NCBI GenBank assembly: GCA_016931055.1
Contig: JAFGFL010000062.1
Location: forward strand, 17,451-81,450
DNA length: 64,000 bases
Reading direction: 5' to 3'
Source: Candidatus Omnitrophota bacterium
GTDB lineage: Bacteria > Omnitrophota > Gorgyraeia > Zapsychrales > Zapsychraceae
The translations under genes were made by a program, and so were the position numbers. A model generated the notes under the pieces. The model was not told the DNA's origin, did no database searches, and saw only the letters and a program-made list of their open reading frames with translations. Below, one piece after another: positions 2,944 through 59,117 of this stretch. Position 1 is the first letter of the stretch. Each line of letters opens with the position of its first letter.

Positions 2944-3636
2944 TCAATCGTTCTTTTCTTTTTCTTCCAAAGCCCTGACCCGCCTGATCAGGTCTTTCAG
3001 GTGCTGCATGATAGGATCGGAAACATGGACATGGTCCATCATCAGGTCAATCCTCTTCCCGTCCTGCTTGGTAATGTGCCCGGGCACGCCGACGACCGTT
3101 GAATTCGGAGGAACGTTCTCCAAGACAACGGCATTCGCCCCGATATAGCTGTTATCGCCAACCGTGATGTTCCCCAACACCTTTGCCCCGGCCCCAATAA
3201 CGACATTGTTCCCGATTGTCGGATGGCGCTTTCCCGTTTCTTTTCCGGTCCCGCCTAACGTCACCCCTTGAAAAAGAGTCACATTGTCCCCGACGATCGC
3301 CGTCTCGCCGATCACGACACCCATCCCGTGATCGATAAAAAACCCTTTCCCGATTAAAGCGCCGGGATGGATTTCAATACCTGTTATAAGCCGCGCCAAC
3401 TGGGAAACAAACCTCGGGAAGAACGGGACCTTTATTTTCCATAAGGCATGGGCTATCTTATAGGCAATAAAAGCATGGAGCCCCGAATAAAGCAGGATGA
3501 TCTGCAGATACCCTTTCGCCGCAGGATCCTTTTCCTGTGTTTCTTTGATCGATTGCTGAAAAAAGATTGCAACCAAAAGGACATAGGCAACAATGATCAG
3601 CAATAAAACAGATACGGTTATGCTCAATCCCATCAT
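2944..3636 (-). CDS. cysE: serine O-acetyltransferase with a hydrophobic N-terminal extension
   Basis: DPAAKGY...GIEIHPGA...FIDHGMGVVIGETA and hexapeptide repeats match short-form CysE. The first ~25 aa (MMGLSITVSVLLLIIVAYVLLVAIFF) look like a TM helix. Confidence 0.85.
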   Translation of the reverse strand: MMGLSITVSVLLLIIVAYVLLVAIFFQQSIKETQEKDPAAKGYLQIILLYSGLHAFIAYKIAHALWKIKVPFFPRFVSQLARLITGIEIHPGALIGKGFFIDHGMGVVIGETAIVGDNVTLFQGVTLGGTGKETGKRHPTIGNNVVIGAGAKVLGNITVGDNSYIGANAVVLENVPPNSTVVGVPGHITKQDGKRIDLMMDHVHVSDPIMQHLKDLIRRVRALEEKEKND

Positions 3637-3640
3637 TCAC

Positions 3641-3717
3641 TCCCGTCATTTTTCCTCATTTCCATTAGGAGGAAATGATGAGACTCGTACCCATCCCTTA
3701 ATCGGATGGTACGGCCT
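3641..3717 (-). promoter_or_regulatory. conserved two-hairpin leader element, copy a (fills the ispF-cysE spacer)
   Basis: The sense sequence AGGCCGTACC...GGGTACGAGTCTCATCATTTCC...GGAAATGAGGAAAAATGACGGGA aligns end to end with the copies at 37488-37567 and 59039-59117. Its terminal GGGAG lies 3 nt before the cysE ATG. Confidence 0.6.
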
Positions 3718-4202
3718 CATCCATTAAGTGGTTCCAACAGCACGGTCGCGAAAGCGGCTATTCCGCGCTTCCGGCCGATAGCGCCCAACTGCTCGTGCGT
3801 GGTCGCTTTAATATTAACCACGCCTTCCTTGACGTTTAATTTACCCGCTATGTTCAAGCGCATTTGCGGCTTATAGGGGCTTAACTTCGGCTCTTCGGCC
3901 AGAATGATGCAATCGACGTTCCCAACCCGATAGCCTTTTGCGCCTGCCAACGCGCACACTTGTTCCAAAAGAACCAGGCTTGATATGTCCTTATATTTTT
4001 TGTCCGTATCCGGAAAGTGCTCGCCAATATCCCCTTCCCCCAAGGCGCCAAGGATAGCGTCACAGACCGCATGCGCGAGCGCGTCCGCATCGGAATGACC
4101 GTCCAACCCGCGTTCGTAAGGGATCTCAACGCCGCCTAAAACGAGTTTGCGGCCCTTCACCAAGCGATGGATATCATATCCTATGCCAATACGCTGTTTC
4201 AT
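3717..4202 (-). CDS. ispF: 2-C-methyl-D-erythritol 2,4-cyclodiphosphate synthase
   Basis: 161 aa with IGYDIHRL and HSDADALAHA motifs. Confidence 0.95.
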   Translation of the reverse strand: MKQRIGIGYDIHRLVKGRKLVLGGVEIPYERGLDGHSDADALAHAVCDAILGALGEGDIGEHFPDTDKKYKDISSLVLLEQVCALAGAKGYRVGNVDCIILAEEPKLSPYKPQMRLNIAGKLNVKEGVVNIKATTHEQLGAIGRKRGIAAFATVLLEPLNG

Positions 4203-4920: not shown

Positions 4921-5898
4921 TTACGATAGTTTTGCAAAGACCATTTTCCCGGCCTGTGTTTGTAAAACGGACGTGACGCGAGCGGAGACTTTTTTTCCAA
5001 TCAGGTTGCGCGCGTCACTGACGACCACCATGGTCCCGTCATCCAAATAGGCTAACGCTTGCCCCGGCTCTTTCCCTTCCCGGACCAATTTCAGTTCCAT
5101 GACTTCTCCGGCATAAATCACAGGCTTGACGGCGTTGCACAGGTCATGAATGTTCAGGACCCCGATCCCCTGCAATGCCGCGATGCGGCTTAAATTAAAA
5201 TCCGTCGTGCATAGGCGCGCGTCCAATAATTTCGCCAACTTCATCAGCTTCGCATCCACTTCTTTTTCTTCGTTCAGTTCATCTTCATGAACGCGGACCT
5301 GGATCTTCGGGTCGCTCTGCATCATTCTCAATAATTCCATTCCCCGCCGGCCGCGCTGGCGTTTGTTTTCATCCGATGAGTCGGAGATTTTCTGCAATTC
5401 CTGCAGCACGCACCGGGGGACGACCAAACGGCCGGTCAGAAAATTCGCTTTATAAATGTCCGCCACGCGGCCGTCGATGATCGCGCTCGTGTCCAAAAGG
5501 ATCGAACTGCCGCTCACATCCTGCCGCCGGAACCGGACATAGGGGATAATAATATTGAACTCGTCTTTCCCGCGCAAGGCAACCACCGTGCCCAAATAGG
5601 AAAAAATGATGGTCAGGACCACGCGGGAAATGGACAGAAAGAAAGGGTCGAAGGGAATCAATTCCAGAATATCAGAAATCAATTTTGCCATGAACACGCC
5701 CAAAAGAAGGCCGAAAACCATGCCGGATAACCCTCGCAAAGAAATGCGGTGCAGTCGCTGCTCCAGAAACATCAACACCAAGCCGCTGATGGCCCCCAAC
5801 TCCAAACCCAACATCGGCTGCTCAATAATGGTCCCGATATAATACCCGACGATAGCGCTTAAAACGAGAAAAAAGACCCGGATAAACAATAGTGTCAT
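4921..5898 (-). CDS. PIN/TRAM domain membrane protein (YacL-like)
   Basis: N-terminal TM helices, a PIN-like core (LLDTSAIIDGR) and a C-terminal TRAM-like fold. It sits between radA and ispD, as yacL does in Bacillus. Confidence 0.75.
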   Translation of the reverse strand: MTLLFIRVFFLVLSAIVGYYIGTIIEQPMLGLELGAISGLVLMFLEQRLHRISLRGLSGMVFGLLLGVFMAKLISDILELIPFDPFFLSISRVVLTIIFSYLGTVVALRGKDEFNIIIPYVRFRRQDVSGSSILLDTSAIIDGRVADIYKANFLTGRLVVPRCVLQELQKISDSSDENKRQRGRRGMELLRMMQSDPKIQVRVHEDELNEEKEVDAKLMKLAKLLDARLCTTDFNLSRIAALQGIGVLNIHDLCNAVKPVIYAGEVMELKLVREGKEPGQALAYLDDGTMVVVSDARNLIGKKVSARVTSVLQTQAGKMVFAKLS

Positions 5899-31993: not shown

Positions 31994-33252
31994 TGTCGTT
32001 CCTTCTTTGAAATGATTTTTGCCGGTACCCCGACAGCCACGCTGCCATCGGGAATGGTTTTTCCTTTTAAAACAACGCTTCCCGCTCCTATAACCGCTTT
32101 TTTGCCGATCTTGGCCGGCGCTACCAAAATGGATCCGGATCCGATGAAAGCGCCGTCAGCGATCTTTGTCGGATGTTTTTGCCGGCCATCAAAATTAGCC
32201 GTGACCATTCCTGCCCCGATGTTCACATTCTCACCGACCGAAGAGTCGCCGACATAACTAAAATGTTTCATGAATGTGCCGCTGCCGACTTTCGACCTTG
32301 ACACCTCCGTAAAATTCCCGATCTCCACTTTATCGTCGATTTTCGTGCCTGAGCGGATCCTGGCAAAAGGGCCGATCTTACAATGGCTGCCGATACGGAC
32401 ATCGGCCTCGATAAAAGAAAACGGGTGAATCACCGTATCATATCCGATCCTTGCGTTCGCATGAACATATGTTGTGCTTGGATCCACAATGGTGACGCCT
32501 TCCAACATGAAATACTTTAAAATCTTTCTGCGCATGATGGCTTCAGCCGCCGCCAGATCTTCACGGGTGTTGACCCCCAAACCTTCCGCAGGGTCTTCCG
32601 TCTCGACCGTCGACATCTTAAGCCCCTTTTCGAAAAAGTATTCGATGATATCGGTCAAATAAAATTCTTTCTTCTTCTTGTTAATCTTGATCTCTTTGAG
32701 CGCTTTAAACAATTCCTTGCCTTGGCAGCAATAAACGCCGACATTGATCTCAGCGATATCCCGCTCAAAACCCGCGGCATCTTTGTCCTCGCGAATGGCG
32801 ACAACATTGCCGTTCGTGCCGCGGATGACCCTCCCATAGCCTTTAGGGTTGTGGACGACGGCCGTCAAGAATGTGCATACCGTTTTTGCCTTTTTATGCT
32901 TCTGAACGATTTTTTTGACCGTCGTTTTGTCCAGCAAAGGCGTGTCAGCGCACAGAATGAGGATATCGCCATGGTAGCTTCGAAAATATTTCTCCGCGCG
33001 TTTAACGGCATCGGCCGTTCCAAGCATTTTAGGCTGCTCAACCGTGACAATCTTGTCGCCTAAAATTTTCTTAACCATTCCGCTTTTATGCCCGAGAACA
33101 ACATATGTTCTTAAAGAACCCAGGGCCAGGGCGATATCCAAGACATACTGAATCATCGGCTTGCCGCAAAGAGCATGCAAGACTTTAGGGATATCGGACT
33201 TCATCCGCGTCCCTTTCCCCGCTGCCAAGATGATTGTTCTTAGTTCTTTCAT
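31990..33252 (-). CDS. glmU: bifunctional GlcNAc-1-P uridyltransferase / GlcN-1-P acetyltransferase
   Basis: I set the start at ATG 33252 (MKELRTIILAAGKGTRMKS). The C-terminus is a hexapeptide domain. The extra ~105 N-terminal codons of the 526-aa track ORF read through a tRNA gene. Confidence 0.9.
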   Translation of the reverse strand: MKELRTIILAAGKGTRMKSDIPKVLHALCGKPMIQYVLDIALALGSLRTYVVLGHKSGMVKKILGDKIVTVEQPKMLGTADAVKRAEKYFRSYHGDILILCADTPLLDKTTVKKIVQKHKKAKTVCTFLTAVVHNPKGYGRVIRGTNGNVVAIREDKDAAGFERDIAEINVGVYCCQGKELFKALKEIKINKKKKEFYLTDIIEYFFEKGLKMSTVETEDPAEGLGVNTREDLAAAEAIMRRKILKYFMLEGVTIVDPSTTYVHANARIGYDTVIHPFSFIEADVRIGSHCKIGPFARIRSGTKIDDKVEIGNFTEVSRSKVGSGTFMKHFSYVGDSSVGENVNIGAGMVTANFDGRQKHPTKIADGAFIGSGSILVAPAKIGKKAVIGAGSVVLKGKTIPDGSVAVGVPAKIISKKERQ

Positions 33253-33431: not shown

Positions 33432-33506
33432 TGGCTGCCCAGCCAGGGCTCGAACCTGGAAAAGCAGATCCAAATTCTGCTGTGTTTCCAATTACACCAC
33501 CGGGCA
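33432..33506 (-). tRNA. tRNA-Gln (anticodon UUG)
   Basis: A manual cloverleaf fits: acceptor TGCCCGG/CTGGGCA (U1-A72), G73, encoded CCA, D arm GTGT-AATTGGAA-ACAC, anticodon arm GCAGA-ATTTGGA-TCTGC, and T arm CCAGG-TTCGAGC-CCTGG. Length is 75 nt. Confidence 0.85.
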
Positions 33507-37436: not shown

Positions 37437-37487
37437 GAACCGATTCGTCTTTCCCATTCTCATCAATATATGAATTCCGATTGTATA

Positions 37488-37567
37488 AGGCCGCACCCAT
37501 TCCTTTATCCGGTGGGGTGCGAGCCTCGTCATTTTACCTTTATGGTAAATGGCAAAAATGACGGGAG
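37488..37567 (+). promoter_or_regulatory. conserved two-hairpin leader element, copy b (5' UTR of the ppiD-like gene)
   Basis: AGGCCGCACCC...GGGGTGCGAGCCTCGTCATTTTACC...GGTAAATGGCAAAAATGACGGGAG. The GGGAG lies 5 nt before ATG 37573. Confidence 0.65.
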
Positions 37568-43642: not shown

Positions 43643-43693
43643 GCCAACCGCTCCTTTTTTACTGCCATCAGAATAGTAGAAAAAAAGATTGTC

Positions 43694-43789
43694 TTAACGC
43701 GAATCGTCGCGAATCTAACACTGATTTACGCGAATATCAGTACTGTTATTTGCGACCATTTGCCTTTGATTTGCGTAAATTCGCGTTAA
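43694..43789. repeat. 96-bp CGCGAAT/ATTCGCG palindromic repeat, copy A
   Basis: Terminal inverted repeats TTAACGCGAAT...ATTCGCGTTAA. It matches the copy at 49747-49843 at ~75 of 97 positions (manual alignment) in the same orientation. Confidence 0.75.
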
Positions 43790-43806
43790 AAATATCTCTT
43801 CAAATT

Positions 43807-49707: not shown

Positions 49708-49746
49708 ATCGTTGACAGAAACCCTTAAAACAAAAGAAAAATTATT

Positions 49747-49843
49747 TTAGCGCTAATAATCGCAAATCCAACGCGAATTTACGCAAATATCAGTACCGAT
49801 TATTCGCGACCATCAGCGTGTAATTCGCGACTATTCGCGTTAA
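49747..49843. repeat. 97-bp CGCGAAT/ATTCGCG palindromic repeat, copy B
   Basis: TTAGCGCTAAT...ATTTACGCAAATATCAGTAC...ATTCGCGTTAA, which aligns with 43694-43789. Confidence 0.75.
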
Positions 49844-49871
49844 AACGAAAGAATAAATCAATCCTGCTCAA

Positions 49872-59038: not shown

Positions 59039-59117
59039 TCCCGTCATTTTTCCGCATTTCCTTTAGAAGGAAAGGACGAGGCTCGCACCCTATCACATAC
59101 TAGGCAGGGTACGGCCT
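59039..59117 (-). promoter_or_regulatory. conserved two-hairpin leader element, copy c
   Basis: Sense sequence AGGCCGTACCCT...AGGGTGCGAGCCTCGTCCTTTCC...GGAAATGCGGAAAAATGACGGGA, ending 7 nt before ATG 59031. Confidence 0.6.

Follow-up and report, generated by a model that had tools for sequence, protein, structure and literature searches.

The ispF-cysE locus and its spacer

The subject of this report is a short structured element in a 64,000-nucleotide (nt) stretch of DNA from a Candidatus Omnitrophota bacterium (assembly GCA_016931055.1, contig JAFGFL010000062.1, positions 17,451 to 81,450; hereafter the window), where one copy of it occupies the gap between ispF and cysE on the minus strand. 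The first-pass annotation, made from the sequence alone, had taken this spacer for copy a of a leader that occurs three times (a, b and c) and brings with it the Shine-Dalgarno (SD) sequence of the following gene. The upstream open reading frame (ORF; 3717..4202, minus strand) ends with TGA at 3719-3717 and its product is YgbB/IspF (Pfam, E 3e-67), while the ORF preceding ispF encodes IspD (Pfam). The cysE ORF (2944..3636, minus strand) encodes a hexapeptide-repeat transferase (Pfam) and is followed by an ORF for CysS. According to the ORF list and the homologues, its start codons AUGAUG lie at 3631..3636 (minus strand); they begin eighty bases past the ispF TGA, and the exact 229-amino-acid (aa) product from the second of them, at 3633, is annotated as serine O-acetyltransferase. 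This start assignment is sound, since about 100 homologues have the same full length; a later start (TTG near LVAIFF) was ruled out because these homologues run to the full 229-230 aa with near-complete coverage. The minus-strand spacer 3717..3641 is the whole 77-base gap from the ispF stop codon (3719-3717) to the cysE starts (3636, 3633), and coordinates and ORF list agree with the earlier statement that copy a fills the entire spacer inside an operon.

Exactly three copies were found in the window by a repeat search, a pattern search and a covariance model derived from 71 distinct copies, with model scores of 60-68 bits. Copy a is a unit of 73 nt, GGCCG...AAUGACG (3644..3716, minus strand; its model score of 64.9 bits is far beyond chance, at E about 5e-14 for the window), delimited by alignment of filled and empty sites and placed between the ispF stop codon and the native SD of cysE. 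Copy b (75 nt; 59042..59116, minus strand; 68.2 bits) has a family-2 glycosyltransferase gene on one side and, on the other, the native AGGA/GGAA SD of a lipoprotein-like ORF of 86 aa. Copy c (75-77 nt; 37487..37563, plus strand; 60.0 bits) lies in the 5' untranslated region (UTR) of a ppiD-like gene, directly 5' of a native GGAG, with a conserved TTGTCA-17-TATAAT promoter ~50 nt upstream. An unfiltered scan with the covariance model found no weaker or diverged copy in the window, the next best score being 14.8 bits. That sub-threshold match (32367-32428, plus strand, E 0.087) is a GGCCG...CG-GCCUCG hairpin without the second hairpin and the tail of the element, and is probably due to chance.

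Filled and empty sites

The corresponding loci of the nearest relatives were retrieved through the flanking proteins (69-85% identity between flanking-gene products), and in these loci the covariance model found no copy anywhere. On four relative contigs, whose CysE is 85-75% identical to that of the window, only 2-18 nt separate ispF from cysE. In one of them (L105) the ispF TGA is followed directly by GGGGGAAATGATGGGA, where the window has TGA, 73 further nt and then GGGAGTGAATGATGGGA; read over a longer distance, TGA is followed by GGGGGAAATGATGGGATT in L105, and by GGCCG...ATGAC and GGGAGTGAATGATGGGATT in the window. At the copy c site, the hisG-ppiD intergenic region of contig L109 (69% identity) aligns throughout with that of the window, including the TTGTCA-17-TATAAT promoter; L109 has GAAT followed by GGAGTAATTATG, and the window GTAT, 77 nt and GGAGTTAAAATG, so that an extra AAGGCCG...ATGACG stands exactly before GGAGT. 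At the copy b site, contigs L112 and L113 (glycosyltransferases 80% and 78% identical to that of the window) have AAAAAAA immediately before GGAAAAAGCGATG, against AAAAAA, 75 nt and GGAAAAAGCGATG in the window; the longer readings are GATTAAAAAAA joined to GGAAAAAGCGATG in both relatives, and GATTAAAAAA, GGCCG...ATGACG and GGAAAAAGCGATG in the window.

Judged from these alignments, all three window copies are precise insertions of 73-77 nt, each placed directly 5' of an SD that was there before. This SD belongs to the gene and was not brought by the repeat, because a GGAG or GGAA SD is already present at the empty sites. For cysE this is the GGAG at 3640..3643 (minus strand), in whose place two of the relatives have GGGGG (L105) and GAGG (L106). 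Copy b ends in GGGAA instead of GGGAG for the same reason, as its last bases are the gene's own SD. Two parts of the first-pass annotation have to be revised here: the element does not carry the SD, which the relatives possess at their empty sites, and it is not a leader belonging to cysE, copy a being a 73-nt insertion of a dispersed repeat into a gap that measures 2-18 nt in four relatives.

An apparent tandem duplication is seen at 3631-3650 (minus strand), where the tail of copy a, AAUGACGGGAGUG, is followed by the look-alike AAUGAUGGGAUUG, which holds the cysE start. Since the empty site of L105 has the AAUGAUGGGAUUG unit as well, that unit is ancestral, and the duplication therefore reflects a resemblance between repeat and target.

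Copies elsewhere give signs of movement. Some share 90-96% identity from end to end, the otherwise variable upper part of the first hairpin included, and yet precede unrelated genes. In the near-identical pairs L066/L092, L058/L072 and L032/L072 the flanks are only about 55-60% identical, which is the level of unrelated sequence; such pairs stand, for instance, before isocitrate dehydrogenase and a small protein, or before TatA and a V-ATPase c subunit. Near-identical copies at unrelated genes indicate recent spread.

We therefore regard the ispF-cysE spacer as a copy of a non-autonomous dispersed repeat of the Omnitrophota that spreads within genomes, inserts just 5' of SD sequences, oriented like the gene that follows, and would be co-transcribed as a structured spacer; we put the probability of this interpretation at roughly 0.6. 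It looks like a mobile element and not like a regulator dedicated to cysE. Since it is not conserved at the orthologous cysE, ppiD and lipoprotein sites, and since its downstream genes are unrelated, it does not fit the riboswitch or dedicated leader type.

Distribution of the repeat family

A pattern scan over one genome per species recovered four copies, on four contigs of a single Candidatus Omnitrophota metagenome-assembled genome, where they precede genes for S6, L31, DnaK and a membrane protein. A looser pattern, run over metagenome contigs, gave 98 stretches, about 80 of which are clearly the same element. The repeat is common in the Omnitrophota: beyond the window there are about 70 distinct copies, in Omnitrophota metagenome contigs, and every protein at the repeat loci that has a named source is labelled Candidatus Omnitrophica/Omnitrophota, as are the proteins of the window itself. 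A covariance scan of 566 kb of these loci regained the known copies and added only three that the pattern had missed. Both large scans fixed CGAGYCUCRUC and AAUGACGGGA, so variation within these motifs, as well as the taxonomic breadth of the family, is under-sampled. Copy density is three in the 64-kb window and at least four in the one matching genome, and a collection of viral contigs held no repeat copy.

The family is undescribed: none of the Rfam models fits it, and no description of it was found in the literature. Against Rfam 15 at gathering thresholds the whole window yielded one tRNA only; copy a alone, searched at E up to 10, gave chance matches well below threshold, and five loci with near-consensus copies gave tRNAs only. 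Literature searches, including those for Omnitrophota RNA motifs, found no published account of the repeat.

Structure and covariation

In its short form the consensus reads (AA)GGCCG, a variable hairpin, CGAGCCUCGUCAUUUCC, a loop, GGAAAUGAGGAAAAAUGACG, GGAG, 6-8 nt and AUG; written out further it is (A)AAGGCCG, a variable stem-loop, CGAGCC UCGUC AUUUCC, a loop, GGAAAU GAGGAAAAAU GACG, and then GGAG. The repeat measures about 62-95 nt. Its two ends, (AA)GGCCG... and ...AAUGACG, show no inverted match to one another, and terminal inverted repeats are accordingly absent.

Hairpin 1 (H1) has a near-invariant base, GGC-CG paired with CG-A-GCC around a bulged A, above which 18-54 nt of many unrelated sequences form a hairpin in each copy. 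Columns 10/69 of the model are CG in 40 copies and UA in 27, and the next pair is CG in 58 and AU in 9. Hairpin 2 (H2) has an inner helix with double changes at all six modelled pairs, including the wholesale variant GUCCCGCCA...UGGCGGGAG. Over the 71 copies 95% of cells pair, compared with 32-55% when the partners are slid by 1-3 columns. Both hairpins are thus supported by compensatory base changes.

Within the family some groups of samples (L058, L072, L032; L066, L092, L059) share an identical or near-identical 48-nt H1 at unrelated genes, and two copies on one contig (L010, L065) may differ strongly in H1 sequence. H1 subfamilies seem, from such sequence comparisons, to turn over at differing rates in different lineages. 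In one copy (L073, 4596-4668, plus strand) a further hairpin, CCCGCCUUGCCGAGCAAGGCGAGG, is nested between CGAGCC and GUCAUUUCC; the H1-H2 junction therefore tolerates insertions.

The spacer of copy a folds into two hairpins (-33.7 kcal/mol, z = -4.15 against shuffles). Its H1 (3682..3716, minus strand), supported by the fold and by covariation of the first variable pairs across the family, has the base GGC-CG / CG-A-GUC with the bulged A at 3685, and an upper stem, ACCAUCC/GGAUGGGU, and a loop, GAUUAAG, both of which vary among copies. Its arms, GGC/GUC, CGUACC/GGUACG and AUCC/GGAU, are those already described in the first-pass annotation; in copy a the ispF stop codon UGA (3717..3719) is predicted to pair in addition with UCA (3681-3679) and lengthens the hairpin. 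The inner helix of H2 (3656..3678, minus strand) consists of UCAUUUCC, the loop UCCUAAU and GGAAAUGA. The anti-SD strand (3677..3682, minus strand), CUCAUC here and CUCGUC in the consensus, is predicted to pair with GACGGG (3647-3642) or, as UCUCAUCAUUU, with the cysE start region GAAUGAUGGGA; it is the G-to-A change from CUCGUC to CUCAUC that creates complementarity to the cysE start region. The 3' internal loop (3648..3657, minus strand) is A-rich, GAGGAAAAAU, and on the 3' side GGGAG at 3644-3640 is followed by TGA and then ATGATG. Sequence and fold both bear out that the operon-internal spacer is structured and has a strand complementary to the SD.

The strong H1 directly after a stop codon might suggest that transcription is terminated or attenuated between ispF and cysE. 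We reject this as very improbable: there is no U-tract after H1 of copy a, where CAUCAUUUCC comes next, and a terminator scan had no match at the site, as the earlier reading had anticipated. About 70 loci have a functional-looking SD and start at operon distance, and the repeat also lies between genes that need co-expression (around rpoC and an S3-like gene). More generally, scans found no terminator-like site inside the repeat and no sigma-70-like promoter inside copies a or c.

The AUG at 3649, in the A-rich loop, opens a 63-codon ORF (3458..3649), and in many copies the tail AUG has an SD-like GAGGA 5 nt upstream, so that a short peptide might be made from it. This too is rejected, and we consider it the least probable of all the readings: the frame relative to the downstream gene differs among copies a, b and c (it is in-frame in copy c), and one-base changes in the length of the A-run and variation among G, C, A and U in GAGGA are common. 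The earlier judgement that this AUG is non-coding holds.

Three further candidates were set aside. A role of H1 at the 5' terminus of a primary transcript was rejected for copy c, where the conserved promoter is ~50 nt upstream, and for the many intercistronic copies; a DNA operator (a dimeric site) in H2 is unlikely, the spacing of the inverted repeat being variable; and a self-cleaving ribozyme or riboswitch aptamer was dropped because conservation falls mostly in helices, the loops vary freely and the genes have no common theme.

Position rule and downstream genes

The repeat is oriented with the downstream gene, and the start codon follows 6-8 nt past ...GGGA in 50 of 69 copies. Upstream, a same-strand ORF ends 0-31 nt away in 35 of 62 evaluable copies; the stop of such an ORF (at least 80 aa) falls between -3 and +5 nt of GGCCG in 17 of the 62 and 6-31 nt before it in 18, counts that are approximate in that they rest on mechanical ORFs and not on curated genes. 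The triplet directly before GGCCG is often a stop codon. In filling an intercistronic gap completely, copy a is typical of the family, not exceptional.

The downstream genes have no common functional theme or pathway. They encode ribosomal proteins S6, L31 and L27, an S3-like KH-domain protein, RpoC, RecA, DnaK and Hsp20, as well as V-type and F-type ATPase subunits, TatA, ParA, ParB, GcvH, P-II and an AsnC-type regulator, and further a secretion ATPase, a solute-binding protein, isocitrate dehydrogenase, CysE, a PpiD-like chaperone and lipoproteins. Some of the filled gaps belong to core operons, among them the spacers before rpoC and the S3-like gene.

That the repeat abuts GGAG so strictly suggests a sequence-directed choice of target. 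On the complementary strand all copies lie directly 3' of YTCC (CTCC/TTCC), in a position where the search pattern fixed GGGA and where selection for an SD would look alike. One could go further and suppose that the repeat finds the SD by base pairing: its anti-SD-like strand GAGCCUCGUC is complementary both to its own 3' end (GACG) and to the target (GGAG), in the manner of guide-directed choice of the cleavage site in single-strand transposition. The family would then be a new targeted class of mobile element that colonises ribosome-binding sites and was possibly co-opted across the Omnitrophota as a portable, bistable control of ribosome binding before abundant proteins. We mention this as speculative and on the whole doubtful.

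The first-pass annotation had proposed that the spacer might uncouple cysE from the isp genes, for example as a processing or stabiliser site. A typical position between co-directional genes could indeed also point to an RNA processing or stability element, in which an endonuclease cuts at the hairpins and H1 shields the upstream 3' end or the downstream 5' end, setting the levels of the cistrons as REP, ERIC and Correia repeats do. H1 is stable, G+C-rich and lacks a U-tract, the repeat often precedes a cistron expected in higher amount (ATPase c subunit, TatA, GcvH), and co-transcribed repeats that alter mRNA decay have been published (PMC3184786). An H1 of 18-54 nt is, however, a poor fit to the site of a length-dependent double-strand nuclease, and copy c lies in a 5' UTR and not between cistrons. 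We rate this explanation as unlikely.

Mobile repeat or regulatory module

The main rival is a selected cis-regulatory leader, that is, a shared module of translational control or enhancement that toggles exposure of the SD through a protein, a small RNA or a ligand and co-regulates abundant housekeeping proteins, with duplication as the route of recruitment, as proposed for Neisseria REP2/CREN. It is the most credible of the alternatives, unlikely as we hold it to be as the primary account, and it does not exclude mobility. Its layout would be that of a bistable switch: the 5' strand CUCGUCAUUUCC has two alternative partners, a proximal GGAAAUGAnG and a distal AAAUGACGGG. Pairing of CUCGUCAUUU with the proximal GGAAAUGAnG is predicted to leave the SD free, and pairing of CUCGUCAUUU with the distal AAAUGACGGG to cover its first bases; both occur among the minimum-energy folds, and the distal helix, its sequence being fixed by the search pattern, is outside the covariation test. 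Many of the proteins encoded downstream are normally abundant (ribosomal proteins, RpoC, RecA, DnaK, Hsp20, TatA, ATPase subunits).

A number of observations weigh against a purely mobile origin, and several of them would be welcome to the regulatory alternative. The sequence is strongly conserved in diverged Omnitrophota (PpiD identity down to 41-46%), with variation in the upper part of H1 and in both loops, and the base of H1 and the sequence of H2 are kept among lineages whose PpiD is only 41-69% identical. The repeat recurs before rpmE, tatA, the V-ATPase c subunit gene and asnC-type genes in diverged genomes; this recurrence and the conserved H1 base and H2 would be compatible with selection for a function of the RNA as well. 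H2 and the tail fold better on the sense strand in 49 copies and on the antisense strand in 20 (p = 7.5e-4), with 45 G-U pairs against 18 A-C oppositions, a bias that hints at constraint at the RNA level; H1 folds without any difference between strands. The direction of change between empty and filled sites is inferred from parsimony, precise loss in every sampled relative being the less parsimonious course. Target-site duplication in the three filled/empty pairs amounts to GG at most (GG|CCG...GACG|GG), and zero is equally possible. Isolated 5' or 3' halves of the repeat were absent from 707 kb, for which reason an autonomous parent element was dropped as a candidate, and neither a transposase nor such a parent was identified, no search having been aimed at a partner enzyme. 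Finally, a comparison of filled with empty sites reveals no consistent shift in the predicted accessibility of the SD at the three sites: 0.29 for copy a versus 0.80, 0.52 and 0.22 at empty sites, 0.34 for copy b versus 0.26 and 0.12, and 0.11 for copy c versus 0.25.

The last of these results also speaks against a regulatory leader, and predicted SD accessibility ranges from 0.09 to 0.98 among copies. For a core regulon it would be unexpected that the nearest relatives lack the repeat at the orthologous sites of all three window copies; no gene theme points to a ligand, and the conserved nucleotides are mostly helical and not junctional. On this balance we prefer the mobile repeat, which would act at the RNA level as a structured intercistronic spacer co-transcribed with its operon.

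Predicted consequences for cysE

As a mobile spacer, copy a would lengthen the distance from the ispF stop to the cysE start from about 2-18 nt to about 80 nt. This longer distance should remove close coupling of termination and reinitiation, so that cysE initiation would have to rely on the gene's own SD. In the folding predictions this SD is partly masked, with UCUCAUCAUUU and the loop sequence CUCCU pairing with the start codons and GGGAG; the loop in question is that of H2. Among 68 copies, predicted SD exposure spans 0.09-0.98, and copy a, at 0.18, is the fifth lowest. It is the exception in that it is predicted to mask its own SD and both AUGs. A translational-coupling switch, in which the terminating ribosome melts H1 and frees the SD, was rejected, as blocking the 5' strand of H1 in the model lowered the mean predicted exposure from 0.58 to 0.42. 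The net effect on cysE is likely to be neutral to mildly repressive, or conditional; these are thermodynamic predictions, and they allow no confident assignment of the direction of the effect.

Other features of the window

The gene order radA, PIN/TRAM, ispD, ispF, cysE is kept in four of four relatives (L105-L108), with the gene for the PIN/TRAM-domain protein (4924-5898, minus strand, in the window) between radA and ispD in all of them. After cysE, cysS follows in three of the four, and two small ORFs take its place in L108. In CysE (2944-3636, minus strand) some 25 residues near the N-terminus, MGLSITVSVLLLIIVAYVLLVAIFF, form a hydrophobic stretch, and many homologues of 229-230 aa match the protein over 88-100% of its length; this suggests a membrane-anchored short form of the enzyme.

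The window has another intergenic repeat, unrelated to the first and about 115 nt long, at 43680-43795 and 49733-49850 (plus strand). Its two copies are 79% identical, rich in CGCGAAT/TTCGCG words and flanked at their ends by a terminal inverted repeat of 11 nt, TTAACGCGAAT...ATTCGCGTTAA; by its sequence it looks like a classical MITE (a miniature transposable element with inverted repeats). The only RNA gene detected in the window is a tRNA-Gln (anticodon UUG; 33432-33506, minus strand).

Significance

The ispF-cysE spacer and the other two "leader" copies of the window are best seen as insertions of a phylum-specific repeat and not as leaders evolved for their genes. Their placement follows an unusually strict rule: the orientation of the gene, a place directly 5' of the native SD, and often an intercistronic gap in a core operon. 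They offer a natural experiment on the load of structured RNA that a bacterial ribosome-binding site and translational coupling will tolerate, and a possible case of sequence-directed targeting of ribosome-binding sites. In practice, the covariance model could be used to mark these repeats in Omnitrophota assemblies, and filled and empty sites could serve as markers of strains and lineages.

Comparison with known systems

With SD-sequestering riboregulators such as riboswitch platforms and RNA thermometers the Omnitrophota repeat shares a CCUC that can pair with GGAG and has an alternative partner inside the repeat; unlike them, it has no Rfam match and no common pathway, and is absent from the orthologous sites of relatives. 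Mycobacterial MIRUs are short repeats found between the cistrons of operons; they run in the orientation of the neighbouring genes and touch stop and start signals. They are, however, tandem arrays with small ORFs overlapping stop and start codons, whereas the Omnitrophota repeat is single at each site, hairpin-based and non-coding.

Palindrome-associated elements derived from IS200/IS605 have hairpins near both ends, make no target-site duplication and insert beside a short specific sequence. The Omnitrophota repeat recalls them formally in its hairpins near both ends, in a flank that reads YTCC at the position fixed by the search pattern, and in a CCUCGUC complementary to the end of the element and to the target, but its H1 and H2 are unrelated in sequence and the geometry of the would-be guide differs. 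As to a partner of this type, isolated element ends were absent from the 707 kb, and no search was made for a Y1 transposase. Like the Omnitrophota repeat, classical MITEs are small, non-coding and multi-copy, vary in presence and absence and have near-identical copies at loci that are unrelated; they differ in having terminal inverted repeats.

REP/BIME, ERIC and Correia (NEMIS) repeats are co-transcribed intergenic repeats of proteobacteria with known effects on mRNA stability, and like the present family they are small, multi-copy, hairpin-forming and non-coding, often lie inside operons and vary in presence and absence. ERIC and Correia elements have terminal inverted repeats and TA duplications, and the Omnitrophota repeat has no such inverted repeats. 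REP is a palindrome of 20-40 nt headed by GTAG, and most of these families lie 3' of genes; the Omnitrophota repeat, by contrast, has no GTAG head, has two unlike hairpins, is strictly oriented and abuts the downstream SD.

The closest described kind is that of the Neisseria REP2 (CREN) and Borrelia IR-A repeats. REP2/CREN and the Borrelia IR repeats are dispersed, have two stem-loops predicted within their RNA and no terminal inverted repeats, and stand immediately upstream of genes with a ribosome-binding site (PMC3184786); REP2 is described as carrying its own promoter, ribosome-binding site and ATG (PMC3184786). In the Omnitrophota repeat no promoter was detected, and the SD and ATG are native at all three sites compared. 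Going by description, it is also shorter, mostly intercistronic and found in another phylum, and it agrees with REP2/CREN in its two stem-loops, the absence of terminal inverted repeats and its place immediately upstream of ORFs.

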